Shown: positions 24,061 to 43,545, counted from the first letter of the stretch. The stretch is 64,000 bases of DNA from Candidatus Omnitrophota bacterium (GCA_043814605.1 JBDRJV010000010.1:1340-65339); one strand, 5' to 3'. A program made the numbers and translations. Notes: a model not told the origin generated them from the letters alone.

Positions 24061-25434
24061 ATGAAATTAAAGAAACAAATAATAGTTTTTATAATTTTTA
24101 TAGTGATTTTTTATGGGGAGATTGTTTTTCTGCAGGCAGAAATAAATTATGAACAATTAACCGCAAAATATGAAAAACAACTTTCTCAAAATTGGTTCAA
24201 ATTTGGCATTAAAAGACAATTAAGCATTTTATATCATAATTGGGCGCATGAACTTACCGAAAAAGGGTTATGGGAAGAGGCGATAACAAAGCAAACCAGG
24301 GCGTATCAATTACAGCCCCAAGAGGCAATAATAAAAAACGCTCTGGCTTATTATTACAATGGCTATGCTTTAGAACTGAGGGAAAAAAAATATTTTCAAG
24401 AAGCAGTAATAAATTTAAAAGAAGCTATTAATTACGCATCAGAGCAGTCACAAATCAAAAAAAATCTTGCTGTAGTTTATGTGGACATGGCAAACGAAGA
24501 GTTTCACTTGGCGGAATATATGAGGTGTGAGAATTTTTTAAAAGAAGCAGAATTGCAAGACCCGGAAAATGCTTATCTTTATGTTTTAAAAGGAGAAGTA
24601 GATTATGTGCAGGATAATTATTATTTTGCCCAAGAAAATTGGGAAAAAGCTTTACAAATCAATCCGCACTTATCTGCAGTAAAATTAAAACTAGAAAAAC
24701 TTAAAAACGAAAAAAATATTGAAAAAAATTTTAATGTTCAGGAAGTAGAACATTTTCGCTTGAAATTTGAAGGTCTCGATAACCGGAAATTAGCTGATAA
24801 AGCCGCGGCAATACTTCGCGATGCTTATAGAGAAGTAGGGCAGGATTTTAGTTGTTTTCCGCAGCAAGTAATTCCAGTGATTATTTATCCCAAGAAGGAA
24901 TTAAAAAAACTGGATTATTTTCCAGACTGGGCAGCGGGGACTTATGATGGCAAAATCCGTATTGGCGAAGATTTGGCAATAATGGGTAAAAATGGTTTAC
25001 AAATGAATTCAGTATTATTTCATGAATATACGCATGTAATTATCAGGCTCTTGGGCGGGGATAATGTGCCGCTTTGGCTGAATGAAGGTTTAGCTGAGTG
25101 CCAGGCTCAAAAATTTAAAAATTTGGAGGAAAAAAGAGCCAGACAAATATTACTTAAGCTGGCGTTAAAAAACAATACACTTTTTTCTTTAGACCAGTTA
25201 GGAGCAATGAATCTAATGAAATTATTAGCTTTATCGGGGAAAAGCATTGAGCTTGTTTATGCACAGAGTGAGTCTTTTGTTAGTTATTTAATTGAACGAG
25301 CTTCTTATTATGATATAAGAAATTTATTAGGACGATTAGGAGAAGGTGAAAATATTTACAAAGCAGTAAAGGATGTTTTGTTTGTTGAACTGGAAGTATT
25401 AGAAAAAAATTGGAAAGCAGATGTTTTACAATAA
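24061..25434 (+). CDS. TPR-repeat protein with C-terminal zincin-like HExxH (HEYTH) domain
   Basis: Signal/TM at the N-terminus and TPR-like helical repeats. Carries LFHEYTHVII...NEGLAE (HExxH + downstream E). Confidence 0.45.
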   Translation: MKLKKQIIVFIIFIVIFYGEIVFLQAEINYEQLTAKYEKQLSQNWFKFGIKRQLSILYHNWAHELTEKGLWEEAITKQTRAYQLQPQEAIIKNALAYYYNGYALELREKKYFQEAVINLKEAINYASEQSQIKKNLAVVYVDMANEEFHLAEYMRCENFLKEAELQDPENAYLYVLKGEVDYVQDNYYFAQENWEKALQINPHLSAVKLKLEKLKNEKNIEKNFNVQEVEHFRLKFEGLDNRKLADKAAAILRDAYREVGQDFSCFPQQVIPVIIYPKKELKKLDYFPDWAAGTYDGKIRIGEDLAIMGKNGLQMNSVLFHEYTHVIIRLLGGDNVPLWLNEGLAECQAQKFKNLEEKRARQILLKLALKNNTLFSLDQLGAMNLMKLLALSGKSIELVYAQSESFVSYLIERASYYDIRNLLGRLGEGENIYKAVKDVLFVELEVLEKNWKADVLQ

Positions 25435-27965: not shown

Positions 27966-29669
27966 ATGGGGAGGGGAAAAGAAATGGTTAGCAAAAATAT
28001 AAAACAATGTTTGCATTCAAGAAAAATACTGATTTTTTTAGTTATTTTTGGGGTTTTATTTTTTTATGTAAGACCTTTATTTTCTCAAGAAACAGGTTTT
28101 CTTAAAACTAAAATTAAAACTGTTTCCGGGCCAAAACTTAATGAATCGGAACGGGTTAAACAAGTACTGCGCAACCTGGAGATTCCGGAAGATATGGGTT
28201 TTATTAAAGAAATCCATGTACCCAGTAATCCCAACGACCAGTTAATTATCACGATTCAGGATCTGCATTGCCATTATCAGGCGCAAAAAAATATTTGTAA
28301 AGTTATTGACTACCTGACGACAACCTACGGTTTAAAAGTAATCAGTGTTGAAGGCGGCAGCGGTAAAATTGATACTACTTTTTATAAGGAGCTTCCGGAT
28401 GAGAAAATTAAGGAACAGGTAGCCGATTATTTTTTAAAAGAGGCGAGGATTAATGGTACGGAGTATTTTGCGATAACCACAAATAAAGACATTGCTCTTT
28501 ACGGAGCAGAAGATGACAAATATTACAATAAAAATCTGGATGCGTTTCTCAAGGCTCTGCCAAACCGTGAGAGGATTTTAGAAAATATTTCTGTCTTAGA
28601 AAATGATTTAAGTATTCTTAAGAATAAAATATATAACAAAAAACTCAAAGCATTAGATGATTATATTGTTGCTTATGAAAATGGAGAAGTAGATTTTGAG
28701 AATTATATTACGTATATCTGTAAACTCTACGATTCGGATAAACTTGCCCGTGAATTTCCACAGGTTAATCAGCTTTATGAGAGTTTACAGATTAAAACTA
28801 AAGTAGATTTAAAAAAAGCAGAAGAGCAGCGCAAGGAGCTGATTGATTATTTAAGTAAAAATTTAACCCGGTATGCTCTGGAAGAATTTTTAAAAGCGAC
28901 ATTTGAATTCAAGGCAAAAAATCTAGACAGCTTAAGTTATCATAATACACTGGAAAAACTTTATCGTGAAATGCAGAATAAGTCTCAGGTTTTAGCCAAG
29001 GCTTGGCCGCAATTACATTGTTATATTCAATATTTAAATAAACATGAGACATTAGATAAATTTGAACTTTTCCACCAGCTGGATAAATTTGTAGAAAGGA
29101 TTAAGAACAATATTTATACCAGCTATACGCAGAAAACATTAGACCATAATTTAAAAGTTATTCGCTTGGCCCGTAACTTGTTTTCAACTAAATTATTAAA
29201 CCGGGATATGCAAGCCATAACTAAATACCGCAGTGAATTTAAAGCCAAAGATATGAAGAAGTTTATTAAAAGCCAGATGCAGCGGTTAAAGTTAGAGTTA
29301 CACATACCTTCCGATGAAGATCTAGAGGTGATGGAAAAAACTTTGCCGGATTTAGAGGATTTTTATGAATATGCGCACAAACGTAATAATATTTTGGCTA
29401 ATAATACGGTTCAAGCTATGGATGCAGAAAAAGAAAATATCGCGATTTTAGTTACCGGAGGGTTTCATACAGACGGGATCACAGATTATTTTAAAGATAA
29501 ACGAATTTCTTATGTGGTGATTGCCCCAAAAATTGATGAATTAGATCAAGATGATACCCGTTATATTAATGCTTTAAAAGGCAAAAAAACACCGTTTGAG
29601 GAAATGATTGAAAACGAAGCAACCCCCTTAAAAGATACATATTTTGAGGAAAATGAAAATAAAAATTAA
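27966..29669 (+). CDS. hypothetical signal-anchored protein (likely start 27984 with GGAGGGG RBS)
   Basis: N-terminal TM helix. Mostly charged/helical and no recognised domain. Strong SD GGGGAGGGG lies 8 nt before ATG 27984. Confidence 0.5.
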   Translation: MGRGKEMVSKNIKQCLHSRKILIFLVIFGVLFFYVRPLFSQETGFLKTKIKTVSGPKLNESERVKQVLRNLEIPEDMGFIKEIHVPSNPNDQLIITIQDLHCHYQAQKNICKVIDYLTTTYGLKVISVEGGSGKIDTTFYKELPDEKIKEQVADYFLKEARINGTEYFAITTNKDIALYGAEDDKYYNKNLDAFLKALPNRERILENISVLENDLSILKNKIYNKKLKALDDYIVAYENGEVDFENYITYICKLYDSDKLAREFPQVNQLYESLQIKTKVDLKKAEEQRKELIDYLSKNLTRYALEEFLKATFEFKAKNLDSLSYHNTLEKLYREMQNKSQVLAKAWPQLHCYIQYLNKHETLDKFELFHQLDKFVERIKNNIYTSYTQKTLDHNLKVIRLARNLFSTKLLNRDMQAITKYRSEFKAKDMKKFIKSQMQRLKLELHIPSDEDLEVMEKTLPDLEDFYEYAHKRNNILANNTVQAMDAEKENIAILVTGGFHTDGITDYFKDKRISYVVIAPKIDELDQDDTRYINALKGKKTPFEEMIENEATPLKDTYFEENENKN

Positions 29670-29831
29670 ATCATTTTAAAAGATAGAACATTTTATACAT
29701 CTTAAACGCTTAGTTTTCAACGTATTATAGCGTTTATTTTTATGTTTGGGAGTTAGCAAAAGAATGTTTTTTATGATATACTTTATGACTATTTTTAAAA
29801 ATTAAAAAACAGGGATTAAAGGATAGTTTTA

Positions 29832-32800
29832 GTGAAAAATTTTAATAGGAAAAAATTCAGTTTAGGGATTAAAATTATTGCCATTGTGCTTATTCAAGCA
29901 TTCTTGGTTTTAGATTTTGCTCAGGCGGCGCAAGGAGATTTTTCTTATCCTGCACAAAAGGAACAGCTGAGTACTTTGGCTCCGCAAATGCAGCTGGATG
30001 CGAAAGCTGTACAAAATATATTCACTACAGCTAATCAATCCCCTCAAAAAACACAGGATTTTGTGCAAACCAAACCTAAGGATTCTAATCCTCAAACTAA
30101 AGGATCTGGGCCTAGAAGAATTATAGCCAGTACAATATTATTTTTGTATTTAACGTTTCCATTTTTAAATACCCTGCCATTTTTTAATGCTTTGGTTTCA
30201 ATTGCTGCACCTGTTCAACAGACTCAGGCTGTGAGCATTACTGCCCCGGAAATGCCCCAAGAATTAGCACAATTAATTTCTAAAGTATCTATTGAAAAAC
30301 CTACAGATATCCAAGGAAGTCCAACTGAAGAGATTAAGGTAATTAAGACCAATATTTATGAAGGCAGGATGGAGTTTACCAATTTAAAGGCCAGAGAAAG
30401 AGTAGAACAAATTAATAAAGCTATAAATATAATTTGGCAGAAATATCCGCAATTGTGGCAATCAGATGATTATATTACAGAAAGAATCAAGGCTACGAAT
30501 AATTCTCCAGAATCAATTGCATTAGGGCATGCACTGCTTTTAGAGAAACTTATTAAGCATGAGAATGTAAAAGAGAAAAATGCTCTTTTATATATTGGTA
30601 ATGTTGATCAGGGAGTAGCGGAAACTCGGGGTTCACAACTGAGATGGTTTGGCAGGCCGCTCATAAAAATCAGTAAAGACTATATTGATAATCCATTCTG
30701 GATTGCATTTATGCTAGAGCATGAGAATATTCATGCTAAAGAAGGTATAATTCAAAGATTGATTCTTTATAATATTCTTAATTTTGCTAAATTCGTTTTT
30801 TCCTTTGCTATACCGGAAGAAAAAGAAGCTTATAAAGCAGAAGCAAGATTTACTAAGATTTTTGGCATAGAACCATTAGAAGAGGGGGGAATGTTTATTC
30901 ATGAATTAGATGTAATGCCACCATATTATCACCCAAAAACAGAAATTCTAATTAAGTTTTTAATTTTTAATTTTTTTACAACAATTTTACCTTTATATTT
31001 CATCGGGCGTTTAATTATAAGATATTTTCAAAATAGAACTGGTAACCAACGTAACACATATACAGAAAACAAGAGGGGTACTGGGTTAAGTTCAGGCGCA
31101 AGAAAAAGTTCACTAAATATTGGTTCTGGAAGAAGAAACGTAAGAAAAAACGTAAGAAAAAACCGTTATCGCTCACTTATATTACTTCCTTTTCTAAAAT
31201 TGTTTGAAGTTATTGACCCGGCAAACTCATTGGCTGCAGATTGGCTGAGTGATTTAACCTCAAATCCTTTGTTTGGTATTAATTTAGCAGGAGTTGTTTT
31301 TGGCATCGCAGCAATAATAATTATTATTACGCTTAGAAAAATAAGGGAATTAAGGGATTTAGATGATACTTTGCGATTTAATTTTAAGGGATTAGCTGAT
31401 TATTGGCATGAATTTGTCTTGAACAAATTGAAATTAATTAATGAAAATAAGATTATGGATAATTTAAAAAGGTATAAAGATAATCCAACTTTGGAAATCG
31501 TCCGGGGATTTATCTTAGAAACAATTACTAAATTTAAGGAAAATCGCCAGTTAATTCGTTATCATAATGAATTTCATATTAATGAAATGCTTGATTTTTT
31601 TGAAAAAATAACAATAAATAATAATTTTAAGTTTTTAAGAGGGAATAGATCGGAAACTTTAATCAAAGCCGCAATTTATATGCATGATGCCGGATATTTC
31701 AGAAAACTTAAAGAAAAAGAGTTTATCCGCATAGGCCATGAAGCAAAAAGTAATGAAATGTTCCGTGATTTTCAGGTTTACTTAAAGAATTTTATACTTG
31801 ATCCCATTGACCAAAATGATTTTCAATTATTTTCTCAACTGGAATTAAAGGCAATCGAACATATGGTAGATATGACTGCGCTTAAAACCGGGCAAGAAGA
31901 AAAAGAATTTGACCAGGAAGTCGCAGATTACACCCAGGCCTATAATCTATTAATGAAATATCAAAGCCCGGGAGCTATTAATCCTCAGGATTTAGAAACT
32001 TTAAAAAATAATAATTTCATCGTTAATAAATTTCAAGATAATGGAGTATTATTAGCAGACTTAAATAATCTTGAGCACCGCCAATTAATTCTGGATGCAA
32101 TCTTAGGCGGTGAAATATTAGCTATGGCAGATATTTATGGCCAGGATAAAAGTTATATTTTCCGTATTCCTTATCTGCAAAAGGAATTTAATGAAGACAG
32201 AAACCGGGGCGATCAAACCAGTCCAGCAGCAGAAACAATGCTTGAGCAGGTTGCCGGAAGTTATGGATTCCATCAGTTTGCTGAGAAAATAAAGCTGAAT
32301 AAATTAAAATTAATTTTACCTTATTTGAATTCGACTCCAGAATTAATTAAAGCCAGACAGGAAACATTAAAAATAAGCAGGAACATTGATGCCGCAATTA
32401 ATGAAATAAAATCAGGAGAATATATACAAGCGGATATTGATGTATTATTGGATTTTGTTAATCAAGGAAAAAAAGATTTTGGTTATGATCAGAATTTCAG
32501 CCAAGAGCTTTTTGATGAAATTAATGAATTTGTTCAAAAAGGGAAAAGGCAAAAAGAACAAGGTATTGTTCAAGATTTAAATTTTTTTCAGGCCGTAGAA
32601 AAGTCAGAACTATATCAGCTTATTGATCAAAAAGGAAAAGATCTTTTACTTAAAAGTTTAAAAGTTAAATTCGTTGATCCCCCTAAATCACCTGAAGAGG
32701 AACAAAACGGGGCAGGAATTATTATTAACCAGGGAGACTCGATTTCCCAGACCGGAGCGTATATTCTTTTATCCGGCTATGTAAAAGTTAAAAAAGATGG

Positions 32801-34925
32801 TTATCGAGTCAATACTTTAGTCCCCGGTGCTATTTTTGGGGAAATCGCGGTGATTAACGGATATGACCGGACTTCTACAGTACAAGTACCGCATAATGTA
32901 AAAGTGCCGGTAAATCTTGTAGAGATTCCTGCAGCAATATTAAAACAGCTTTATTCAGAAAATATCAGATTAAGAGAGTTTTTAGATAAAACGATTAATA
33001 CCAGATTACAGGAACTCGAAGAAATTGAAAAGTTTGATAAAACTAACCGGGAAATAAAAACAGATGAAATACTGAAAATTATATATGGACAAGATCATAT
33101 TATTAAAAGAAATGAAAATGCCCGAGAAATGGCGCAGCGTATAATAGATCGAGCTCCGGTATCAGAAGTTATGGAAAAACTGGAAAAGATATCACAAGGC
33201 CAAGCTCAGGAAATATCAAATGAGGAATTAAATTTAATAATCGCCTTATTGAATTCCCAAAATCCTTTGGGGCAAATTATTAATAAAGGGGAAAAAGGAG
33301 ATAAAATAGTTGCGTTACAGGTACCGGGGATATCTGAAACAAGTCTGGGAATTAAGCAATTAAATGATATTTTAAAGTATCAGTTGAATACACGTTTGAT
33401 TCAAATTAAAAGAGATATTATTCTTAAGTTAATGCAGGAGCAGGGATTAATTAATGATCAGCAGGGTAGAATTTATAGTACTTATAAAGAAGATGTTTTT
33501 TTAATTAACAAAAATATTCTGTTAACCCAAGCTAAACTTGAAGATTTACGCAAAGAATTTAGAAAAAGAATATTTGAGTTTATAAAAGAAAATTCTATCT
33601 TTAGGGATAGGCTTATTAGTAACAACATTACCCTTGAAGAAATAGCGCAGTTTCCCCTTGATTTTGGGGTAAGCGAAATAAAAGAAGCTTCTGCTCAAGG
33701 CCGGCTCTTAGCGGATATTAATGCGCATCAGGCAGTCACTATTTCTAAACTGAATAATTCTGCATTTTTTTCAGAACAAGATTATAAAAATGTAATTGCT
33801 AAAATTAATATTTTAAGAAATCAGCTTGTTTTTAAAACTTCAGTTTTTGACCAGGAAAATGGAGCCTATTTCTTGAAAAATAATATTAGTGATGCCTTAA
33901 GGAAAAATATGTTATGGAGCGGTCTTCCTCTAAACATTAAAGAGTATTTTAATAATTTAGAAGTTAATTATGATCTGGCCCGGGAATATTTTTCTTATTT
34001 AAATATCCATGATTACATAAAAAAATGGTCGATTGATGGTGATTTTGAATCGACTGCTGATGATGATGTTTTTGAATCGGCTTATGAAAGAGCAGAAAAG
34101 ATACTGGATATTACAAACCAACTTAAAACTATCCAAAAAAATCAAGATCCCAAGTTATTGTTTAGCCAGGCAAAGGAGTATTTAGAACGGGAAACCAAGG
34201 TCCAGGAGTTTACTTCAGCCCATGCTTTTTATAATTTTGGTTTAAAAGCTAAACATCCGGTTATAATCACACTGGATATTGAAAAAATGGGATTAATGAA
34301 TATAAAATCTTTTGAAATAGATTTGCAAAAAATCAGTAATGCTATTTCTGAAGGGGATCAGGAAAAACTGCAAATGCTTTGGATGAGTGCCGCTGATGAT
34401 GTGACTGAAAAGTTGGTTAAAACAATGCAAATCGTGAAAAAATTTATAATTAAAAAATTCGATTTAGAACAATATCAAATAGTCGAAGAAATGGGCGGGG
34501 ATGAATTCAGCTTAATTATTGATAAGAAAATTGAAACTCAAGAGTTAGCGCATTTGCTGAATGTTATTAAAAATTATGTGAGTCAGGAAATGGATATTGG
34601 GGTTCGCATGGCGGCAACGCAAGCCATAGAACAATTGCGGAAAGATTTTGAAAATAGAGGCAAAATACGGGATCCTTTAGCCTTTGCTGTAGGAATGAAT
34701 ACTTCCGATGAAATGATTGAGATAATTAAACAAAATTATGAAAATAATGGAGAGTATGATAAAGTAATTATTCAGAATGAAAAAGGCGACATGATTATAT
34801 ATGAAAACGTACTATTAGAACAGCCTGTAACAACAGTAGATTTAGATATCCTTGAAGCAATTATTGGGGACATGCACCCCAATGACATATTAAAAGATTT
34901 GGATTTAGTGGGCCAGGCTATTTAA
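29832..34925 (+). CDS. giant multidomain membrane signalling protein: conserved N-terminal module + TM segments + HD phosphohydrolase + cNMP-binding + GGDEF
   Basis: HD motifs (HNEFHINE...YMHDAGY). cNMP-binding consensus (GAIFGEIAVINGYDRTSTV). C-terminal GGDEF (EEMGGDEFSLI). Several TM helices and a basic R/K-rich linker. Confidence 0.7.
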   Translation: MKNFNRKKFSLGIKIIAIVLIQAFLVLDFAQAAQGDFSYPAQKEQLSTLAPQMQLDAKAVQNIFTTANQSPQKTQDFVQTKPKDSNPQTKGSGPRRIIASTILFLYLTFPFLNTLPFFNALVSIAAPVQQTQAVSITAPEMPQELAQLISKVSIEKPTDIQGSPTEEIKVIKTNIYEGRMEFTNLKARERVEQINKAINIIWQKYPQLWQSDDYITERIKATNNSPESIALGHALLLEKLIKHENVKEKNALLYIGNVDQGVAETRGSQLRWFGRPLIKISKDYIDNPFWIAFMLEHENIHAKEGIIQRLILYNILNFAKFVFSFAIPEEKEAYKAEARFTKIFGIEPLEEGGMFIHELDVMPPYYHPKTEILIKFLIFNFFTTILPLYFIGRLIIRYFQNRTGNQRNTYTENKRGTGLSSGARKSSLNIGSGRRNVRKNVRKNRYRSLILLPFLKLFEVIDPANSLAADWLSDLTSNPLFGINLAGVVFGIAAIIIIITLRKIRELRDLDDTLRFNFKGLADYWHEFVLNKLKLINENKIMDNLKRYKDNPTLEIVRGFILETITKFKENRQLIRYHNEFHINEMLDFFEKITINNNFKFLRGNRSETLIKAAIYMHDAGYFRKLKEKEFIRIGHEAKSNEMFRDFQVYLKNFILDPIDQNDFQLFSQLELKAIEHMVDMTALKTGQEEKEFDQEVADYTQAYNLLMKYQSPGAINPQDLETLKNNNFIVNKFQDNGVLLADLNNLEHRQLILDAILGGEILAMADIYGQDKSYIFRIPYLQKEFNEDRNRGDQTSPAAETMLEQVAGSYGFHQFAEKIKLNKLKLILPYLNSTPELIKARQETLKISRNIDAAINEIKSGEYIQADIDVLLDFVNQGKKDFGYDQNFSQELFDEINEFVQKGKRQKEQGIVQDLNFFQAVEKSELYQLIDQKGKDLLLKSLKVKFVDPPKSPEEEQNGAGIIINQGDSISQTGAYILLSGYVKVKKDGYRVNTLVPGAIFGEIAVINGYDRTSTVQVPHNVKVPVNLVEIPAAILKQLYSENIRLREFLDKTINTRLQELEEIEKFDKTNREIKTDEILKIIYGQDHIIKRNENAREMAQRIIDRAPVSEVMEKLEKISQGQAQEISNEELNLIIALLNSQNPLGQIINKGEKGDKIVALQVPGISETSLGIKQLNDILKYQLNTRLIQIKRDIILKLMQEQGLINDQQGRIYSTYKEDVFLINKNILLTQAKLEDLRKEFRKRIFEFIKENSIFRDRLISNNITLEEIAQFPLDFGVSEIKEASAQGRLLADINAHQAVTISKLNNSAFFSEQDYKNVIAKINILRNQLVFKTSVFDQENGAYFLKNNISDALRKNMLWSGLPLNIKEYFNNLEVNYDLAREYFSYLNIHDYIKKWSIDGDFESTADDDVFESAYERAEKILDITNQLKTIQKNQDPKLLFSQAKEYLERETKVQEFTSAHAFYNFGLKAKHPVIITLDIEKMGLMNIKSFEIDLQKISNAISEGDQEKLQMLWMSAADDVTEKLVKTMQIVKKFIIKKFDLEQYQIVEEMGGDEFSLIIDKKIETQELAHLLNVIKNYVSQEMDIGVRMAATQAIEQLRKDFENRGKIRDPLAFAVGMNTSDEMIEIIKQNYENNGEYDKVIIQNEKGDMIIYENVLLEQPVTTVDLDILEAIIGDMHPNDILKDLDLVGQAI

Positions 34926-35043
34926 GCGATAAAAAACATTTTAATCGAAAGTTATTTTTTGTAACTATAATAGAATAAATAAGTTAAGTTAATGATAATT
35001 TTTTAAAAAATTATCATTTTTTTTTGTAAAAATATAATTTATA

Positions 35044-35052
35044 TGGTATACT
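35044..35052 (+). promoter_or_regulatory. extended -10 promoter (TGGTATACT) upstream of 35161 gene
   Basis: TGnTATAcT preceded by TTGTAA at an appropriate spacing. Confidence 0.4.
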
Positions 35053-35160
35053 TTATAATCCTTTTTATTAAGTAGGCGGGTAAAATAGTATAAGTTATTA
35101 ATTTACAGGTAATAAAAGACTAATACTTCATTAGTAAAATTAAAAACATAAATTTAAAAA

Positions 35161-37719
35161 ATGAAGCCAAAAAACACAAAATTTCAAAAAATAATTGCAT
35201 TTTTATTAATGCAGACATTTCTAATCATAACTTGTTTGCCAGTGCCGGGATATGCGGGGAAGAATACTCAAGAAAAAAAGGTAAATCAGGTTAATTTAGA
35301 TAATCTTTCTCCCGTGCTTGGCTTAAATAGTGAAACAATAACAAATGTATTCAAACAAATTTCTCTTGAGCAGCGAGATAAAACAAAGGATATCATAACA
35401 AAAGGTGCATTAAGGCCATTGTTTTTAAGAGAAGATAATTTATTGATTTATGATAAGGCAAGTAAACAAGCAATGCTGGGGTTTTTTTTGGGTAAGGGAG
35501 TGGTCTTATTAAGAAAGATTTCTCTAAAATATTATAAGCCGGCAGTCAGAAGAATTGATGGATGTGCTTTGATAACTTTAAAAACAGAAAAAGGAATAGG
35601 ACTAATCCACTTTTTCCCGGATAATACTTTTAAAAGAGTTAATCATGTTATAAAGGCTCTGGTAAAAGAGCTAAAACAGCAAATAAATGCAGATTCTCAT
35701 GCAAAGGTTGAAATAATTTTTTCTAAGCTAACTTTTGAAAACAATGACGTAAGTTATGCGCCTTTTGAACAAACACTGATTCAGGGGTTTAAAAGAGAGT
35801 TAGGCATCAAGGATATTAAAATAATAATTGAAGATGGAATAATCGGCAATCTCGAATTTGATATGGAGCAGGAAAAATGGGATTATGGAATAGCTGAGAT
35901 TAAAGTAAAACAGAAGAAGTTTTTTTATAACCGTAATTTATTAATAAAATTAAAGGCTATATTAAAAATAATTAATGATATTTATGAAAAAATAGTATAT
36001 TTTCCCGCTCTATTTATAAGATCTAAAGATGAAAAAAGATCATCAGCTCTAAAACCGTTATTACTTGTTACGAAAGGCTCATATGATGAGCCCTCAATCA
36101 GGCGTAGCTATAGTGATTTAAATAATATTACTTTTCGGGGAAAAATTGATGAAGTTATTTTACAATTTGCAAAAAAATATCCCGGCCGGAAAAATAAGAT
36201 AAATATTCTGCTTATCGGCGGAGGAAGATTGCAGGATGAACAGCTTAAAGTGCATATCGAGGCTGATTTAAAGATCCCAAAGAACAAGGTGAATGTATTT
36301 TCATACGCAAATGAAAACTTAGCTTTAATGAGAGATAAAAATCAGTTAACGATTGGCGATATTGATAATGGGTTGCCATATAATAGTGATTTTTTTCATC
36401 TGGCTATTGTTTCTGATGTTGTCGCTCCTTATTTTAAGAATAAATTTGCAGCCTTAAGACAGATACAAAGGACATTAACTAATGACGGAAAAGCTTTTGT
36501 TGCTGATTTTGGATTATTTTCATTCGTGGATAAACGGGGGAAATTCCATAATCTAAATCTCCTAATGTTTAAAACAATCAGTCAAAATAAATATGAAAGA
36601 GATGATGGTAAAGATTCAGTCATCTTAAGAAATATAATATTTGGTAAAACTCCCCGGATTCCTGAGTTTAAATTAAAAGAACCTATCCCGTTTAAGTTCG
36701 GAAAAGCTCTAAAATATGAAAGCAGATATGAATGGAATCAAACACTGGCTGATTTATTAGATAAAATATCCAGCCAAAATAGATTTTTTTCATTTTTTAC
36801 ATTTAGTATATCTATCTTTAGCTTTTCATTTTGGGGAAAAGAAATAAACATTAATATTCCCGCAGGATATATTTATACTGGCCTGGGATTTTTTATTGCT
36901 GCGCTTGCTTTTAAATTTCTCCCTAAAATCATAATAGGTATTAACTCAATAAAAAATTCTTTTAATCCGCAAAGAAGGGAAATGCTTGAGAAAATTTTTA
37001 ACCCTTATTTATTATTAGGAATAATGCTTATTCCTTTTATCAGTTTAAAAGGGGATTCTAATTTACAACATACAACCAGGTCTTTAGTTGTAACTCTTTT
37101 ACTCAAAATAGCATTAACGCGAGAAACTTCTGATGATGTTTTTGAACGTGATAAGCTGATTATTAATTTAACCTATACCCAGGCATGGCTGGTTTTTGAT
37201 GAAATAAATAATAAAGAAATCGCGGGGATTGCTTGTGATATTTATACAAAAGCGGCAAATGCAGTTTTAACTGTAAGAGATGGATATTATCCGGAAACTG
37301 ACTTTTATGATTATCAGTTATTTAGAGTTATTGCGGCAAAAATTAATGGCGAAGACTGGGTTTCTCTAATGCAGGAGTTTGCGGATGAAAATAATAAAAA
37401 CAAAAAAAGACCTATGCAAAATGAAGATGCGCAAGATGGTGATACAGGAATTATCATTGCTGCGGGTATTGGCTGGAATAATAATGGGAAAATTCCTCTT
37501 AATGCTTATAAACGTAAGGTGCAACCAATTTCTAAATACCCAGTCCTGAAAGAATATTTTGATGAAAATAGCCAAACAGTTCAAAATTCTGTTCCGGAAG
37601 GAAGGGAAAAACCCGAAAAATTACAGGCAAATTTACCTTATATCGTTAATATATCAAAGGCAGGAAAAGCATTATTGCAAACAATAGAAAAACACAGTTT
37701 AATTGAACAATCAATTTAA
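35161..37719 (+). CDS. large membrane protein with conserved N-terminal module (paralog family), central Rossmann-like region, multiple TM helices
   Basis: N-terminus is homologous to those of 29832, 38072 and 61699. TM cluster at aa about 530-620. No confident catalytic domain. Confidence 0.5.
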   Translation: MKPKNTKFQKIIAFLLMQTFLIITCLPVPGYAGKNTQEKKVNQVNLDNLSPVLGLNSETITNVFKQISLEQRDKTKDIITKGALRPLFLREDNLLIYDKASKQAMLGFFLGKGVVLLRKISLKYYKPAVRRIDGCALITLKTEKGIGLIHFFPDNTFKRVNHVIKALVKELKQQINADSHAKVEIIFSKLTFENNDVSYAPFEQTLIQGFKRELGIKDIKIIIEDGIIGNLEFDMEQEKWDYGIAEIKVKQKKFFYNRNLLIKLKAILKIINDIYEKIVYFPALFIRSKDEKRSSALKPLLLVTKGSYDEPSIRRSYSDLNNITFRGKIDEVILQFAKKYPGRKNKINILLIGGGRLQDEQLKVHIEADLKIPKNKVNVFSYANENLALMRDKNQLTIGDIDNGLPYNSDFFHLAIVSDVVAPYFKNKFAALRQIQRTLTNDGKAFVADFGLFSFVDKRGKFHNLNLLMFKTISQNKYERDDGKDSVILRNIIFGKTPRIPEFKLKEPIPFKFGKALKYESRYEWNQTLADLLDKISSQNRFFSFFTFSISIFSFSFWGKEININIPAGYIYTGLGFFIAALAFKFLPKIIIGINSIKNSFNPQRREMLEKIFNPYLLLGIMLIPFISLKGDSNLQHTTRSLVVTLLLKIALTRETSDDVFERDKLIINLTYTQAWLVFDEINNKEIAGIACDIYTKAANAVLTVRDGYYPETDFYDYQLFRVIAAKINGEDWVSLMQEFADENNKNKKRPMQNEDAQDGDTGIIIAAGIGWNNNGKIPLNAYKRKVQPISKYPVLKEYFDENSQTVQNSVPEGREKPEKLQANLPYIVNISKAGKALLQTIEKHSLIEQSI

Positions 37720-38071
37720 AAATAACTCTTTCCCGGCATTCTTTAATTACATAAAGAACATATTCAACCCCCCCCTAGAAACAGTAGATTTTAAACTTAT
37801 TTTGCTTTTTTAATAGCTTTTTTACTAATTCTCCGATACAAAAGAAAAAAAATTTCTCACTCCCCTTGCAGAATTAAAAATTATGTGATACACTTAAAAA
37901 GTCTTTTTAAAGTTGTTTAAAAATTGTTCGCTCTTTAAATTAAATATCTTTAGAAGAAAGTTTAAAAAGAAACTTAGAAACTCTTCTAAAAACGCATATT
38001 AGGGGTATGCGCAGTTTTACCTAAATTGCAGTTTAAATAGTTGAATAGCAATTAGAAAGAAAGGTGAAATT

Positions 38072-40546
38072 ATGAAGCAAACCTCTAAATCAAAATGGAT
38101 TTATTTGCGGATAATTAGTTTAGTCTTAATCCAGGCATTTTTTTGTCTTAATATTAGTTATTCCTTTTCCCCAAAGCTTTCCTCATATAAGAATCAAAAA
38201 CAAACGGAAGTGGCAACTTTATCCCCGCAAATTTGTATCAGTATTGAATCATTTCAGTATAACTATTCTAACTATCACAAGTATTTTAATCAATCCGGGA
38301 ATAATCAAACAGATTTTACTAATCCGGATCATGATCAGCAGATTTCCATTATTGATTTTTATGAACAGATTAACCCTGATGAAGCAGGTAAAAAGGATCC
38401 TGGAAGTACGCAAATTTATCATCTCTCCTGGAGAACAATTAGCTTAGCATTAGCAGGTTCTTTTATTGCTGCGGTGGAGTTTTTTTCTTTCTTGCAGGTT
38501 TTAGGCTTAACAGGGCAAATTACGTTACTAACACTTGCCGGTCCGTATTTTGCCGCATTATTTATGGGAAGCTTGATTTCTGTATTGTGTGGGATCGGGT
38601 TCAGAGGAATAGGGTACTCTCTGGCTGCTGCTAGGCAAGGATTAAAGGGTAAAAATCATGTAAACCAAAAAGGAGTATTTTTAAAAATTCCTGGTTTAGT
38701 AAATCAGGAACAACGCAAACAAATTATGGAAAATGGGAAAAAGGTACATAATACGTCAACTTTTACATTAATCAGTGCGATGCTGGCTTTAATTATTATT
38801 CCAGTACAAATTGAACTGGCTGCTTTTGTCATTATCCCTATGGTTGTAAATATTATATTATATTTAGCCAAGTCCATAAATACAGAGATTCAATATCAAG
38901 AAAAGACTAAGTTTAATAAGATCTATTGTACCTGGCAAACTTTAATTCAGGCGTTTATTGTACCGTTTATGTACTTACGTATTGAAACAGTTCTTAAAGC
39001 TTTTGCGCAATCGCCAACTATAACCGGTCTAATCAGTGCTTTAACAATCCCGGTAAGTTTGCTAAGTATTGGCGGGTTTGCCGGGATTGGTTTTCTAATT
39101 GTGGTAATTGCTTTAATAATGCATGAGATGGGGCATAATAGCGTTGCGCAGAGTTTAAAAGTTGAAAGATCTTTTGGTATTGATAAAAAGGGAATATCTA
39201 TGGAATTAAGTAAAGAGCTGGAGCTGGAAAAAATCAGGATGATTGTACAAAGAGGAATTTATAATAATAAATGGTTTATTTCATTAGGTATGCAGTTTTT
39301 CTGGTTCATTTTTTTTGGGATAATTGCTTGTTTGTCAAGTATCCAAATTTTTATAGTTATCCCGCTGATTATTGGAAAAGTAAATAAAATCTTTTCTGAA
39401 ACTGAGGAAGATGAGTTATTTTTAGAGAAAACCAAGGGAAAAAATGTTTTTGAAATATTAAGAGAAGTAAAAGATTTTGTTTCAGTGTTAGCAAAATCTA
39501 TAAAGAAAGAGGAAAAGCCGGCAATAATACTGCTTGGCGGTTATTTTGCCGTAGGTAAAAATGAACTTTTTGAACTGATAAATAAAACTTTAAAGGGAAG
39601 TAAAATGTTCAATAAGAAAATCCGTATTATATCCATAGACCGGTTATTAAAGACAGAATCTAAAAGAGAAAAGAATTTATCCTATCCTTATAATACCTAT
39701 GAATATGAAAAATATATCAAAATGGTGGAGGATTTTTCTGAGGGGAAACCGATTTATTTGCCATTTTACCTGCATATTTTTTCAAAGAGATTGTTAATTA
39801 GTAAAGAAATAATTCAAGCATTAATTAAAGAAAAAGGTGTAATTTTAAGTGATTTTGATGGTGTTAAAATGATAAAGCTGGATAAGGCTAAGAAAAATTT
39901 GCCAGTGAAGAATTTTGTAAGTTCTCAGCGATTAGAAAGGATAAAAAAACAAATAAAATCAAAAAGGCAGAAACCGGAAAAATATCTCCAAATTTTTAAG
40001 GTTTTAAGTGAAAAGCCATTGAGCAGTTTTTTAGTTAATAGCGCTAATGATATCTATGTAAGAATTAATAATGATGGGACAGGGGAAATTGTTGAGCAAA
40101 TCCGGCCGGAAAAAGAAGCGATTCATGTTTTTGAGTTTGAACAGGCATTGACATCTCCCCGGGCAAGAAACAAGGCAAAGAAAACACTGGTAGTCATGGC
40201 TTCTCAGAAAAAACGGCAGGAATATTTCATGAAAAGGTGGAGAAACGGGTTAAGATACCTTCATCTGAGTGAGCAGGAGATAGTGGAAAAGTTTAATAAT
40301 TTCATAAAAAGAGAGAATAATGATTTTGAATTTAAAAACGGGCTCTTAAAAGCACAACTAATTTTAAATACGGAAGTGCCGATAGCTGAGCAATTGCAGA
40401 AAAAAAAGAAAATTAATCATAAAATTGATGAAGAAAAAAAACAAAAACTTATTAATAAACTAAGTCAAACATTAAGCTGCTTAAAAAGTTTAAAGATATC
40501 AAAAGAAAAATCACCAATTTTTCAAACTATTCAAATAGCTATTTAA
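38072..40546 (+). CDS. large polytopic membrane protein with conserved N-terminal module, intramembrane HExxH (HEMGH) motif and C-terminal degenerate uridine-kinase/PRK-like P-loop domain
   Basis: Shared N-terminal module. MHEMGHN sits inside a TM helix (site-2-protease-like). The C-terminal ILLGGYFAVGKNE...ISIDRLL...P(F)Y pattern resembles the Udk/PRK family but has a non-canonical P-loop. Confidence 0.5.
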   Translation: MKQTSKSKWIYLRIISLVLIQAFFCLNISYSFSPKLSSYKNQKQTEVATLSPQICISIESFQYNYSNYHKYFNQSGNNQTDFTNPDHDQQISIIDFYEQINPDEAGKKDPGSTQIYHLSWRTISLALAGSFIAAVEFFSFLQVLGLTGQITLLTLAGPYFAALFMGSLISVLCGIGFRGIGYSLAAARQGLKGKNHVNQKGVFLKIPGLVNQEQRKQIMENGKKVHNTSTFTLISAMLALIIIPVQIELAAFVIIPMVVNIILYLAKSINTEIQYQEKTKFNKIYCTWQTLIQAFIVPFMYLRIETVLKAFAQSPTITGLISALTIPVSLLSIGGFAGIGFLIVVIALIMHEMGHNSVAQSLKVERSFGIDKKGISMELSKELELEKIRMIVQRGIYNNKWFISLGMQFFWFIFFGIIACLSSIQIFIVIPLIIGKVNKIFSETEEDELFLEKTKGKNVFEILREVKDFVSVLAKSIKKEEKPAIILLGGYFAVGKNELFELINKTLKGSKMFNKKIRIISIDRLLKTESKREKNLSYPYNTYEYEKYIKMVEDFSEGKPIYLPFYLHIFSKRLLISKEIIQALIKEKGVILSDFDGVKMIKLDKAKKNLPVKNFVSSQRLERIKKQIKSKRQKPEKYLQIFKVLSEKPLSSFLVNSANDIYVRINNDGTGEIVEQIRPEKEAIHVFEFEQALTSPRARNKAKKTLVVMASQKKRQEYFMKRWRNGLRYLHLSEQEIVEKFNNFIKRENNDFEFKNGLLKAQLILNTEVPIAEQLQKKKKINHKIDEEKKQKLINKLSQTLSCLKSLKISKEKSPIFQTIQIAI

Positions 40547-40648
40547 AATTAAAAAATATAAGAGTTATTATTTATCTTGCCTATCTATTTTTCTATTGTT
40601 AAAATAAAACTGAGGATATATCATTTTTAATGAAACAAATAGTAATCT

Positions 40649-42811
40649 ATGCCAATCTATGATTCAAAACAACATATCAAATCTGGAATTCCTTTAGGCG
40701 GTATTGGCGCCGGGAAGTTAGAAATAACGCCTTATGGCACTTTAGATTATATTACTTACCAGAATAATTGGACTAACCCGATATGTAATGCGACAAATAA
40801 AGATAAACAAAAAGCGCAGGGAATTGCGGGTTTTCATTTCGCCTTGTATGTAAATGCCCAGGCCGCGGTAATTTGTAAGTTATTACAGACAGAAAAAATC
40901 CAAAATTATCGGACGATAAGTCAAATTGAATTTAAAGGCGAATTTCCTTATGCGCGTTTGAATTATAAAGATCGTAACTTACCAGTTAAAATTTCTCTTT
41001 GTGCCAATTCAATCTTCATCCCTGCGGATATAAAAAATTCCAGTTTGCCGGCTTGTGTTTTTGAATTTGAAGTTATGAATCCAATGCCGAAGAATATTGA
41101 AGTGGGCATTATGTGTGTAGCGCGGAATTTAATTTCTAAAAACTCCGTGGGCAGATTAAACAGTTTAAAAAAATACGGGAAACTTGTGGGGTTAGAATTC
41201 TTACATACCCAGCCATTAGCGCAGGATTCTCAAGCGGGCGATACTTTCTTGAGTGTTTCCAAAAAATCCGGCAGAATTAGTTTTCTCTCTGGCTGGAATA
41301 TGCAAAAGGAAAATTTTTGTTTTGAACCTAAAGTAGGATTAGATGCTTTTGAATATTTTGAAAAAAATGGCACATTACCTAATCTAAGGATGAAACACCC
41401 TACTCAAAGCCAGAGTTTTGAACTCGGCGGTGCATTAGCTGTAAGTTTTAAATTAACTCCTGGTCAAAATAAAAAAGTACCGTTTTTCTATACCTGGCAT
41501 TTTCCGCAGCATTTTCAGGGCCATTTATATGAAAAAAGTTTTAGAAAAAGTAAAGATGTTGCGATTTATGTAGATAAAAACATAAATTTTTTGCAAGCCA
41601 GAACAAGGCAATTACCCGCGATAATAAAAAGTATGGAACTTGCGCCCTGGTTAGCAGATGCTTTAATGAACAATCTCTATACGCTTTTTTCCTCAAGCTG
41701 GTTAACCCGTAATAATGATTTTACTATGTATGAGTCTCCCTTAATTTGTCCTTTGATGGGGACTTTGGATGTTTATTTTTATGCATCCGTAGTGATTGGC
41801 TTGTTATACCCGGAACTGGATAAAAAAGCTTTATTATTATTTAAAAAAAATATTCGCAAAAACGGATATATACCGCATGATTTAGGGTTAGATAGAATTG
41901 ATTTGCCTTCAAATGGAACAACCATGCTGTTATGGAAAGATTTAAATCCTAAATTTATTCTGCTGGTTTATCGGGCATATCTTTTTTCCGGAGACCGGAA
42001 ATTTTTAAAAGATATGTATCCGGCTCTAAAACGGGTTTTTGAGTGTAGTTTAAACTTCGATAAGAATAATGACGGTTTGCCGGACAATGAAGGTTTTGAT
42101 ACCACTTTTGATACATGGGGATTTACTGGGGCGGGTTCTTATAATGGGAGTATTTTTCTGGTAAGCCTTTTGGCGCTTAAAAAAATTGCGGATTATTTTA
42201 ACGATAAGGGATTAGCAAAAAAGTGCTTACATTGTTTTTTAAAAGGACAAAAAAGTTTTGAGGATAAATTATGGAACGGGAAGTTTTATATCACATCAAA
42301 TGATCAAGATAAGATGTATGAGTCTTGTACTGTTGCGCAATTAGCGGGTCAGTGGTATGCATATCTTTTAGGTTTGGGAAGAGTTTTCCCGGAAGATAAT
42401 ATTAAAAGTGCGATAAAATGGATTTTTAAATTAAATGATCAAGATTCTTCATATGGCGCAACAAATTCTGTATTTGTTAATAAAAGAAGAGATAAAGAAT
42501 CCTACCATTCTCAAAATATTTGGCCGGGCGTGTGTTATTCTTTTGCTGCCTTAGCTATATATGAGGGGTTTGAGAAACAAGCTTTAAAACTAACAAAAAA
42601 AGTTTGGGAAACGATAAGTATAAAAAACAAAAGCCCTTGGAATCAGCCGGATGTAATCATTGCCCAAGACGGAAGTTTCGGGTTTGGTGATTATTATATG
42701 CGTAATAATGTAATTTGGGCTGTGCTTTTAGCTTTAGCAAAAAATAATCCTAACATAGAAATCGGCCTTGAGAAAATCAAGGTTTTAGTCAGATTTATGC
42801 ATAAACTCTAA
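40649..42811 (+). CDS. glycoside hydrolase family 116 (GBA2-like glucosylceramidase / beta-glucosidase)
   Basis: N-terminal GIPLGGIGAGKLEI motif characteristic of the GH116 N-domain. 720 aa with (alpha/alpha)6-like C-terminal region. Confidence 0.65.
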   Translation: MPIYDSKQHIKSGIPLGGIGAGKLEITPYGTLDYITYQNNWTNPICNATNKDKQKAQGIAGFHFALYVNAQAAVICKLLQTEKIQNYRTISQIEFKGEFPYARLNYKDRNLPVKISLCANSIFIPADIKNSSLPACVFEFEVMNPMPKNIEVGIMCVARNLISKNSVGRLNSLKKYGKLVGLEFLHTQPLAQDSQAGDTFLSVSKKSGRISFLSGWNMQKENFCFEPKVGLDAFEYFEKNGTLPNLRMKHPTQSQSFELGGALAVSFKLTPGQNKKVPFFYTWHFPQHFQGHLYEKSFRKSKDVAIYVDKNINFLQARTRQLPAIIKSMELAPWLADALMNNLYTLFSSSWLTRNNDFTMYESPLICPLMGTLDVYFYASVVIGLLYPELDKKALLLFKKNIRKNGYIPHDLGLDRIDLPSNGTTMLLWKDLNPKFILLVYRAYLFSGDRKFLKDMYPALKRVFECSLNFDKNNDGLPDNEGFDTTFDTWGFTGAGSYNGSIFLVSLLALKKIADYFNDKGLAKKCLHCFLKGQKSFEDKLWNGKFYITSNDQDKMYESCTVAQLAGQWYAYLLGLGRVFPEDNIKSAIKWIFKLNDQDSSYGATNSVFVNKRRDKESYHSQNIWPGVCYSFAALAIYEGFEKQALKLTKKVWETISIKNKSPWNQPDVIIAQDGSFGFGDYYMRNNVIWAVLLALAKNNPNIEIGLEKIKVLVRFMHKL

Positions 42812-42873
42812 TCTCGTATTCATAAACCAAAAAATTATAAAACCTAAACCCTAGATCATAAAATCAAAGTAAA

Positions 42874-42902
42874 TTGCAAACATTTTTTTGATATGGTATA
42901 AT
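42874..42902 (+). promoter_or_regulatory. promoter upstream of smpB (TTGCAA-17-TATAAT with TGG extension)
   Basis: -35 TTGCAA at 42874-42879 and extended -10 TGGTATAAT at 42894-42902. Confidence 0.45.
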
Positions 42903-42910
42903 TTTCGCTA

Positions 42911-43375
42911 ATGGGGAAAATGGAAAAAAAGACAATTGCGACTAATAAAAAAGCTTTATATCAATATGATATTGCGGAGAAAATTGAAGCGGGGATTGAG
43001 CTTTGCGGTACAGAGGTTAAATCTTTAAGGCAGAACAAGTTAGATTTAAAAGACAGCTTTGCCCGGATTAATAATGGAGAAGTATTTTTACATAATTTAT
43101 ATATAAGTCCTTATGATAAAGGCAGTTATAATAATGTTGACCCCCGGCGTATAAGGAAACTTTTATTACATAAAGCCCAAATCAGTAAGCTGATTGGCAA
43201 AATTAATCAAAAAGGCTTTACATTAATTGCGATTAGTTTATACTTTAATGACAAAGGTAAAGCTAAGGTAAATTTGGCATTAGCCAAAGGGCGTAAACTT
43301 TATGATCAGCGGGATAAGATCAAGGATAAGGAAACTGAACAGCGTTTGCGTAAAATATCCAGTATCCGGAAATAA
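42911..43375 (+). CDS. smpB: SsrA-binding protein SmpB
   Basis: ALYQYDI...GIEL.GTEVKSLR and a C-terminal basic tail. It is adjacent to tmRNA. Confidence 0.85.
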   Translation: MGKMEKKTIATNKKALYQYDIAEKIEAGIELCGTEVKSLRQNKLDLKDSFARINNGEVFLHNLYISPYDKGSYNNVDPRRIRKLLLHKAQISKLIGKINQKGFTLIAISLYFNDKGKAKVNLALAKGRKLYDQRDKIKDKETEQRLRKISSIRK

Positions 43376-43545
43376 AACGCTAATGGCGATTCGAGTTCAT
43401 AAAGCTATAAAGTTTATAAAGTGAAAAGCAGGTTACGGGCTAACTGGTTAACACTTGAACATAAGATAAATTACTAAAAAATTTAACGTTGTTTTTTCTA
43501 ATCGTTAACCGCTATACACTAAACGCTTATAGTTAATAGGAATTG

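Follow-up and report, generated by a model that had tools for sequence, protein, structure and literature searches.

A membrane protein of Candidatus Omnitrophota with phosphodiesterase-like, cyclic-nucleotide-binding and tandem-palm modules: a possible second-messenger converter

Can one bacterial polypeptide sense, degrade and synthesise second messengers, and which messengers would these be? The question is raised by a gene of Candidatus Omnitrophota bacterium which is found on the plus strand, at positions 29832 to 34925, of the 64,000-nucleotide stretch analysed here (GCA_043814605.1, JBDRJV010000010.1:1340-65339; referred to as the window). A preliminary description, made from the sequence alone, had assigned an HD phosphohydrolase domain, a cyclic nucleoside monophosphate (cNMP)-binding domain of CAP type and a canonical C-terminal GGDEF domain to the encoded protein of 1,697 amino acids (aa), and had proposed a self-contained node that makes, breaks and senses second messengers. 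This observation could be confirmed in part, and its first interpretation is partly supported. We propose that the product of the gene is a modular converter of second messengers which is anchored in the membrane, a reading which seems to us about evenly balanced between right and wrong.

The gene is a single unit. Its open reading frame (ORF) is uninterrupted, and an identical protein is found at NCBI under the name 'MAG: cyclic nucleotide-binding domain-containing protein [Candidatus Omnitrophota bacterium]', MAG standing for metagenome-assembled genome. The GTG start is considered to be right, since the N-terminus is colinear with two homologues (P0002 and P0003) from residue 1. A scan for promoters and terminators gave nothing better than shuffled sequence. 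When the whole protein and four segments of it were compared with Pfam and NCBIfam, nothing was found besides cNMP_binding, so that one of the three proposed domains was supported and HD and GGDEF were not; single-sequence searches of the PDB with the HD and C-terminal regions gave no matches. As the scans, taken literally, spoke against two of the three domains, the identity of these regions was investigated. The strings HENIH, YHNEFH, HD and GGDEF are all conserved in homologues and thus did not arise by chance.

Relatives were collected by an exhaustive HMMER search with aa 500-1697, which resulted in 97 hits (a word-indexed search gave 2 relatives). These consist of generic hits to the cyclic-nucleotide-binding (CNB) domain and of hits to two further modules: module A (aa ~540-920), after which a CNB domain often comes, and module B (aa ~1090-1670).

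Module A carries the HD motif. The conserved family comprises about 25 relatives, and 19 of these (17 after trimming), which are 24-39% identical to the query, were aligned (alignments A2 and A7). Conserved positions are Y577-H578-N-x-x-H582, H618-D619 in the family context A-I-Y-x-H-D-x-G-Y, H636-E637, T682, A766-D767 and E785 in the context E-F, together with a near-invariant E-Q...G-F segment (Q239 of alignment A7). H578, H582, H618, D619, H636, E637 and D767 are invariant or near-invariant in 17-19 relatives, and the metal-ligand pattern H...HD...D of HD proteins is thus retained (H582, H618-D619, D767). Pfam HD is matched by 10 of the 19 family members at E<=1, the best value being 1.3e-5. 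We are highly confident that module A is a metal-dependent HD phosphohydrolase.

The AlphaFold model of this module is all-helical, with a predicted local distance difference test score (pLDDT) of 93.9 and a predicted template-modelling score (pTM) of 0.92. When it was compared with the PDB by Foldseek, the top eight matches were all catalytic domains of class I phosphodiesterases (PDEs), with probabilities of 0.99-1.00 over ~300-360 columns; they comprise PDE5, Trypanosoma brucei PDEB1, PDE4D, PDE10A and PDE2A, and PDE6 comes next. The sequence profile, too, has class I PDEs (5H2Q and 2R8Q) as its two best PDB matches, with alignments that cover the YHNxxH helix and the helix that precedes the late Asp. 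The YHNxxH motif aligns to PDE4D and to PDEs from Trypanosoma cruzi and Leishmania. From H582 to H618 there are 36 residues, which equals the spacing of H164 to H200 in PDE4D2 (the PDE4D sequence was checked against 5K32).

Module A thus has in common with class I PDEs such as PDE5 (1UDT), PDE4D and T. brucei PDEB1 an all-helical catalytic domain of the HD superfamily with ~300 aa, the motif Y-H-N-x-x-H, H-D 36 residues further on and a late A-D. Fusion to a sensor is also shared (PDE2, PDE5, PDE6 and PDE10), but their sensor is an N-terminal GAF domain while that of the protein studied here is a CAP-type CNB domain which follows the catalytic domain. Moreover, the present protein is bacterial, and the likeness exists at the level of fold and motifs only. 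The near-invariant E-Q...G-F segment may hold a counterpart of the invariant glutamine with which class I PDEs clamp the purine. With moderate confidence we regard a class I cNMP PDE as the closest known shape.

The preliminary description had considered that the HD domain might be of HD-GYP type. HD-GYP PDEs share with module A the HD superfamily and the GGDEF-type neighbour, but their signature HHExxDGxGYP is lacking. The GYP motif is absent from the protein, neither HD-GYP nor any other HD family is found near the top of the Foldseek matches, and there is no HD-GYP structure among the top 50. This identity was rejected. The motifs on which the HD domain had been recognised are present and conserved, but it is not a generic HD domain. 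As module A is PDE-like and neither HD-GYP nor generic HD, what is broken would most likely be the mononucleotide of the sensor and not cyclic dimeric GMP (c-di-GMP).

The sensor is the domain that Pfam supports. Pfam cNMP_binding (PF00027) matches aa 963-1043 with 34.2 bits, above the gathering score of 27.5, and the best PDB matches are CNB domains of PKG and PKA (E 2e-8). Its phosphate-binding cassette, FGEIAVINGYDRTSTV, can be aligned with the cassettes of PKG and PKA (FGEAALIHNTQRSAT in PKG). Within its residues F1002-G-E-IAVINGYD-R1013-T-S-T-V the Glu and the Arg that hold the cyclic phosphate are kept, and the FGE motif reported before is indeed intact. Thr after the cassette Arg is the residue type linked to cGMP tolerance when PKG is compared with PKA, and the Arg-Thr pair found here is a hint that the cassette may be compatible with cGMP. 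The cassette (F-G-E-...-R-T) is as intact as in the CNB domains of CAP, PKA and PKG, with PKG as best match, but the domain differs from these in its position between a PDE-like domain and a putative palm cyclase.

Module B, which contains the GGDEF motif, is predicted to be one compact unit made of two palm lobes. Twelve to fourteen relatives, 18-41% identical, were used for its alignments (A1 and A3). In lobe 2, the invariant residues are D1482 (in P-V-x-I-x-x-D-[IV]; LDIE in the present protein), G1487, N1490, A-D1522-x-V-T1525 and G1555-G-D-E1558, so that the GGDEF hairpin (G1555-G-D-E-F) and the Asp of strand 1 (D1482) are both present; the F of GGDEF varies across the family. Lobe 1 has its own invariant or near-invariant segments (V-P-G...G-I-K-x-L-N, Y-S-T-Y-K-E-D-V-F, A-D-I-N-A-H-Q-A and Q-D-Y-I-K-K-W). 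It reads VALQVPG...GIKQLND where the Asp-bearing strand is expected and YSTYKEDVF where GGDEF is expected, and it is considered to be degenerate. An alignment of the two lobes by hhalign is colinear, the VPG strand being paired with the LDIE strand and STYKED with GGDEF (P=0.026).

A model of this region with 608 aa (pLDDT 84.3, pTM 0.83) shows two beta-alpha-beta-beta-alpha-beta cores with helices between them. Its top 15 PDB matches in Foldseek are all Cas10/Csm1 structures, colinear over ~570 columns with E-values of 1.7e-5 to 1e-3, but with template-modelling scores (TM-scores) of only ~0.2. GGDEF cyclases, GTP cyclohydrolase III, soluble adenylyl cyclase and mCpol follow below these. For the profile of lobe 2, the best PDB matches are all diguanylate cyclases, located around the hairpin (E 0.004-0.01). 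In Pfam, the family members show weak contacts with DUF3095, GGDEF and Csm1_B, with a weak GGDEF match in 2 of the 14 members.

In diguanylate cyclases such as PleD, residues at defined positions read the guanine base. N1490 (+8 from D1482) and D1522 are invariant and lie at the corresponding positions of the motifs, so that they may have this role; a helical insertion of ~25 aa is found between them. At the base-reading position of GGDEF and Cas10 enzymes, Asn reads guanine and Ser reads adenine (Panoptes paper, PMC12657218). As the residue is an invariant Asn, GTP would be the likelier substrate of the predicted palm cyclase.

Lobe 2 resembles GGDEF cyclases (PleD; Thermotoga TM1788, 4URG/4URS/4URQ) in the palm fold, the strand-1 Asp, the Asn at +8, an A-D-x-V-T segment in place of G-D-x-x-L and the GGDEF hairpin. 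It differs from them by the ~25-aa helical insertion, by the lack of conservation of the F and by the lack of an I-site, as no RxxD precedes the GGDE motif. Furthermore, its chain always has a degenerate lobe and a helical domain ahead of it. The preliminary description was thus correct about the GGDEF pentapeptide (aa 1555-1559), of which GGDE is conserved, but not about a canonical GGDEF domain, as the motif belongs to a Pfam-negative lobe of a tandem palm. Since this lobe is Pfam-negative and paired with a degenerate one, the product need not be c-di-GMP.

It has to be considered whether the protein nevertheless handles c-di-GMP only, being made by a canonical GGDEF domain and broken by an HD-GYP-type HD domain while the cNMP-type domain acts as an allosteric sensor. 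The invariant GGDE, the Asn and Asp kept at the presumed guanine-reading positions and the profile matches to diguanylate cyclases would fit such a node, as would the borderline Pfam GGDEF domains that follow the CNB domain in relatives. In addition, GGDEF domains and PilZ genes are reported from giant-protein loci of Omnitrophota (10.1101/2023.11.21.568195). The phosphohydrolase does not fit: it lacks GYP, and its model matches class I cNMP PDEs. Neither does the synthase, which has no Pfam GGDEF match and no I-site, and whose active lobe has a degenerate lobe as its permanent partner. We consider a node restricted to c-di-GMP quite unlikely.

The pairing of an active with a degenerate lobe also evokes class III cyclases (mammalian C1-C2, 7OVD) and GTP cyclohydrolase III (2QV6), which likewise have two palm lobes, one of them degenerate, in a single chain. 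In that case all three modules could deal with cNMPs, a pseudo-heterodimer of class III type making the very cNMP that is sensed by the CNB domain and degraded by the PDE-like domain, which would result in an oscillator or homeostat for one messenger that limits itself. In known families, 3',5'-cNMPs are handled by the PDE-like fold as well as by the CNB domain, soluble adenylyl cyclase (7ovd) is among the fold matches with 532 columns, and the weak PADLOC matches of the CNB domain are to Pycsar effectors, which sense cyclic mononucleotides. However, the hairpin and the base-reading positions of lobe 2 are of GGDEF type and class III motifs are not found there, class III cyclases and 2QV6 rank below Cas10 and GGDEF structures, and profile matches were obtained to GGDEF enzymes only. 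A pure cNMP node is therefore unlikely in our view.

The fold matches to Cas10 have to be weighed in the same way, as the protein might be a non-CRISPR relative of Cas10: a cyclic-oligonucleotide synthase whose PDE-like domain acts as a degrader similar to ring nucleases and whose CNB domain is a receptor or regulator. Apart from the 15 top-ranking structures, this would be in accordance with the order HD - degenerate palm 1 - helical - active palm 2 - helical, which mirrors that of Cas10 (Csm1/Cmr2), where two lobes likewise form a pseudo-dimer for a single active site, and with a weak Pfam Csm1_B match in one family member. In contrast to Cas10, the protein is membrane-anchored, has GGDE(F) instead of GGDD and Asn (the guanine type) instead of Ser, and carries an HD domain that is PDE-like and not of the Cas10 nuclease type; the TM-scores are low as well. 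There are no cas domains in the 12 window ORFs that were scanned with Pfam, and no short-spaced direct (CRISPR-like) repeats in the 64 kb of the window. PADLOC, applied to the window, gave only weak CNB-based matches to Pycsar effectors and no Cas10. An enzyme of this kind is, we believe, decidedly unlikely. A reading of the locus as a defence system was not adopted, PADLOC having provided only the weak Pycsar matches.

The three soluble modules of the converter tend to occur together. In a census with module profiles, module A and the CNB domain were found together in 8 proteins, and the N-terminal HExxH domain together with module A in 5. Both halves of module B always occur together in about 17-20 homologues (17 in the census). 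In P0002, P0008 and P0019, a Pfam GGDEF domain of borderline score (22.4-23.6 bits compared to the gathering score of 23.8) comes at most ~40 residues after the PDE-like and CNB domains. A second Omnitrophota MAG (isolate RS_8_62; locus L005) has one ORF that codes for the leader, the tandem palm, a methyltransferase-like part, the PDE-like domain, the CNB domain and an ...EQAI tail. The three modules are thus all present there, but they are rearranged, and the transmembrane and HExxH part is lacking. Such recurrence argues that the PDE-like, sensor and palm modules are coupled. Most occurrences of the tandem-palm module are in MAGs of Omnitrophota (e.g. Candidatus Gygaella obscura); the others are in one 'Planctomycetia' MAG and two unclassified MAGs.

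Further palm-like pairs were noticed in P0002 (aa ~1630-1714 and ~1960-2050) and in P0003 (aa ~830-900 and ~1190-1260). One member of each looks active (VDVDLMRLTN...RRGGDEF) and the other is degenerate (DIRDFKVVNE...ARGPPAGP). As these two proteins carry another such pair, the combination of active and degenerate palms seems to be a general theme of the superfamily.

The N-terminal 500 residues would anchor the protein in the membrane. Hydropathy revealed hydrophobic segments at aa 7-34, 97-125, 372-396 and 478-507 and a weaker, signal-peptide-like one at aa 448-462, which bears out the several transmembrane (TM) helices and the Arg/Lys-rich linker noted before (Table 1). Both the basic linker and the region beyond aa 508 are probably cytoplasmic because of the positive-inside rule and because the putative substrates are nucleoside triphosphates and cNMPs. 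If helix 372-396 spans the membrane once and the linker is positive-inside, the HExxH domain would be outside. In this domain the HENIH motif, noticed in the N-terminal part before, is present at aa 297-301 and conserved in homologues. Alignment A4, with six proteins, revealed H297, E298, H301, N314 and E330 as invariant, the Asn and the Glu being found 13 and 29 residues after HENIH. HExxH with a downstream Glu is the ligand pattern of gluzincins. No family or fold could be assigned to the domain by Pfam, PDB profile or hhalign. By hhalign, the HExxH helix is the sole part that aligns with the Peptidase_MA_2 protein of the ORF starting at 24061; that protein, which combines TPR with Peptidase_MA_2 (HExxH), is encoded at 24061-25434, a few genes upstream.

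The N-terminal family module that had been reported proved to be common to four window ORFs (1,697, 852, 824 and 494 aa), all of which, as many homologues, have a pair of leader and tail. The leaders are encoded at 29832-30041, 35161-35370, 38072-38290 and 61699-61900, and the C-termini of the tails at 34911-34922, 37705-37716, 40532-40543 and 63169-63180. A leader has a Lys/Arg-rich start, then I(A/S)(I/L)VLIQAF(L/F)..D(I/F)AWA and, ~20 aa further on, TL(A/S)P..(Q/S)L. The tails follow '[QSA][SA]I-COOH' (GQAI, EQSI, QIAI and FQAI, with EQAI in L005). The pair looks like a lineage-specific sorting or recognition signal and not like an ordinary signal peptide.

Table 1. Coordinates of the gene, of the features of its product and of the two adjacent genes (window positions; residues of the 1,697-aa protein; Lys/Arg abbreviated K/R, Asp/Glu D/E).
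Feature	Position	Strand	Basis
Upstream gene, 567 aa, one N-terminal TM segment	27966..29669	+	gene fusion, synteny
Complete ORF, stop included, GTG start, 1,697 aa	29832..34925	+	ORF call, homologue colinearity
Lineage-specific leader module, aa 1-70: K/R-rich start, hydrophobic IAIVLIQAFLVLDFAQA, then LSTLAPQMQL motif	29832..30041	+	common to 4 window ORFs, many homologues
TM segment, aa 97-125, GPRR just before	30120..30206	+	hydropathy
HExxH domain, aa 126-371; HENIH at 30720-30734	30207..30944	+	alignment A4, 6 proteins
TM segment, aa 372-396	30945..31019	+	hydropathy
Arg/Lys-rich linker, aa 397-447, 15 K/R and 1 D/E	31020..31172	+	composition; also in P0002 and P0003
Signal-peptide-like stretch, aa 448-462 (...ANSLAA), strong TM segment, aa 478-507, RKIRELR	31173..31352	+	equivalent segment in P0003
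HD-superfamily domain resembling class I cyclic-nucleotide PDEs, aa 540-860	31449..32411	+	alignments A2/A7, AlphaFold, Foldseek
CAP/PKG-type CNB domain, aa 963-1043; cassette FGEIAVINGYDRTSTV at 32835-32882	32718..32960	+	PF00027, PDB matches
Conserved tandem-palm module, aa 1090-1670, predicted compact unit	33099..34841	+	homologues, AlphaFold, Foldseek
Palm lobe 1, degenerate, aa ~1150-1315	33279..33776	+	A3 invariants, secondary structure, hhalign
Palm lobe 2, GGDEF-type, apparently catalytic, aa ~1464-1664; GGDEF at 34494-34508	34221..34823	+	A1/A3 invariants, PDB profile
C-terminal tail ...VGQAI-COOH, low confidence; family [QSA][SA]I tail	34842..34922	+
Downstream gene, 852 aa, same leader and tail	35161..37719	+	gene fusion

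By computation, the domains exist and their folds are predicted confidently, the catalytic residues are invariant, the modules co-occur and genes are fused. On this basis, the converter may be envisaged as follows. A cyclic mononucleotide, either cAMP or cGMP, would bind to the central CNB sensor, and this binding would switch the palm module through the flanking helical linkers. The palm module would then turn GTP into a guanine-nucleotide messenger. Pairing of the active lobes of two chains would lead to c-di-GMP; an oligonucleotide, linear or cyclic, would be expected if the acceptor site is located in the degenerate lobe as in Cas10. The PDE-like domain may hydrolyse the cyclic mononucleotide and thus end or tune the input, similar to the GAF-regulated PDE2, PDE5 and PDE6. 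The HExxH domain and the two neighbouring proteins, one of 567 aa and one that is methyltransferase-like, are probably input or processing parts of the same pathway.

Several points weigh against this proposal. Pfam HD (PF01966) reaches 13.2-13.5 bits on the 1,697-aa protein and thus stays below its gathering score of 22, while PDEase_I (PF00233) gave no match at E<=10, neither with the segment nor with the 19 family members. The Foldseek matches to PDEs have E-values of 0.02-0.3 and TM-scores of 0.4-0.5 (0.02-0.11 and 0.39-0.48 for the top eight), and the profile matches to class I PDEs, with E-values of 0.08-0.14, are not significant; a trimmed profile brought no gain, and hhalign to PDE4D alone aligns nothing but the YHNxxH motif. 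The family has HD-x-G-Y (H-D-x-G-Y-F) in place of the PDE signature HD-x-x-H-x-x-x-x-N. On the side of the synthase, Pfam GGDEF (PF00990, gathering score 23.8) does not match the 1,697-aa protein even at E<=10, and the Cas10 models of PADLOC do not match either. As far as the topology can be read from the sequence, the N-terminal leader taken as a signal anchor and the positive-inside rule lead to conflicting parities. Finally, the substrates and the product are inferred, as is the direction in which control would be exerted.

One could suspect that the modules are pseudo-enzymes, which serve for binding or as a scaffold but are not active, in a large protein of the Omnitrophota leader-and-tail family that is associated with the surface or the membrane and does not turn over any messenger. 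The Pfam thresholds for HD and GGDEF are indeed unmet, and degenerate palms exist in the superfamily (lobe 1, and the 'RGPPAGP' domains in P0002 and P0003). However, both the PDE-like domain and lobe 2 have all their canonical metal ligands and catalytic residues invariant among distant sequences. Since these are only 24-40% identical, the invariance speaks for selection on catalysis, and we regard inactive domains as very improbable.

With the converter as the preferred reading, the earlier node of making, breaking and sensing persists in outline, carried by the invariant catalytic residues, the intact cassette and the recurrence of the modules, but not in its specifics, HD-GYP and canonical GGDEF. 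The superfamilies are all known; two of the three soluble modules belong to families that are invisible to Pfam, and the combination is unusual. This shows that the spotting of motifs ('HD', 'GGDEF') can name the right superfamilies and yet miss the actual families.

The adjacent genes are linked to the converter by gene fusions. The upstream 567-aa protein is homologous to the N-terminal parts (~500 aa) of P0010, P0011, P0013 and P0017, all of which have the tandem palm, and of P0020, in which the PDE-like module is present. The proteins with a tandem-palm or PDE-like module that start in this way are giants of 2,047-5,695 aa. Alignment A5 shows the invariant motifs I-x-D-x-H, E-G, E-D and G-G-x-H, but no assignment was obtained by Pfam, PDB profile or hhalign; a likeness to TIKI/ChaN-type proteins (QDxH...GGFH motifs) may be suspected. 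Orthologues head the syntenic clusters at two other loci, L001 (66% identity) and L002. The gene is thus a predicted Rosetta-stone partner of the gene studied here, functionally linked to it by fusion and synteny. As for the downstream 852-aa protein, aa 310-534 (36088-36762) are homologous to the stretch that separates the palm from the PDE-like module in the L005 protein, and the N-terminal 250 aa match P0030, which bears a PDE-like module. Its middle part is methyltransferase-like, with a weak NCBIfam methyltransferase match only.

The region 27966-43974 of the window is syntenic to positions 1-16207 of L002 and to L001. These loci share an ORF similar to that at 27966, large proteins with leader and tail, GH116 and SmpB, and the cluster is located upstream of GH116, SmpB and transfer-messenger RNA (tmRNA) both in the window and in L002. 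At the syntenic position, the domain content of the large proteins differs between genomes; P0003, for instance, has only the leader and the HExxH part in common with the protein studied here. As large proteins at the same position differ in their domain content, this suggests that domains are shuffled at a fixed locus.

The tmRNA at 43546-43974 was confirmed by Rfam with 194.7 bits. Its tag according to ARAGORN is 'APAG*', which starts unusually far in (nucleotide 227). If the frame began instead at GCT (43639), which is as far from the 5' end as is usual, the tag would be much longer and end with ...PVLF. Among the window ORFs with at least 150 aa, 41 of 47 are on the plus strand, counting one of 166 aa which is nested in antisense. 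The window is AT-rich, with about 33% GC, and its GC skew is positive throughout, with an almost monotonic cumulative rise. Strand bias and GC skew would fit a single replichore of a small genome rich in AT.

Large signalling proteins have been described for this phylum. Giant proteins of 'Archaeovorin' type from Omnitrophota are reported to carry GGDEF, phosphatase and receiver domains (10.1101/2023.11.21.568195; 10.64898/2026.06.07.730766). The likeness includes anchoring by TM segments or signal sequences and signalling domains strung together in one chain. The protein studied here is far smaller (1.7 kaa), and its modules are not named in the passages of these sources that were consulted.

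The most far-reaching version of our proposal is an undescribed class of Omnitrophota signalling enzymes, in which a bacterial PDE of class I type with a CAP-type sensor is joined to a non-CRISPR, Cas10-like single-chain tandem-palm synthase that would make a linear or cyclic guanine oligonucleotide, and not c-di-GMP, on a cyclic-mononucleotide cue. Together with the 567-aa and methyltransferase-like proteins, this would constitute a housekeeping relative of cyclic-oligonucleotide systems, which until now are known from defence only. We put this forward as a speculation that is unlikely as it stands.

To our knowledge, class I cAMP/cGMP PDEs are treated as essentially eukaryotic enzymes, and tandem-palm synthases of Cas10 type are known from the immune systems of CRISPR and from minimal derivatives of these. 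If both Pfam-invisible modules are what is suggested by their predicted structures and invariant residues, an uncultivated, host-dependent phylum would have built converters from cNMPs to (oligo)nucleotides out of distant versions of both enzymes, and the known range of both enzyme architectures would be extended. About 50 large unannotated proteins would obtain handles for their annotation. The protein would also be a compact test case, as one chain would sense, degrade and synthesise.

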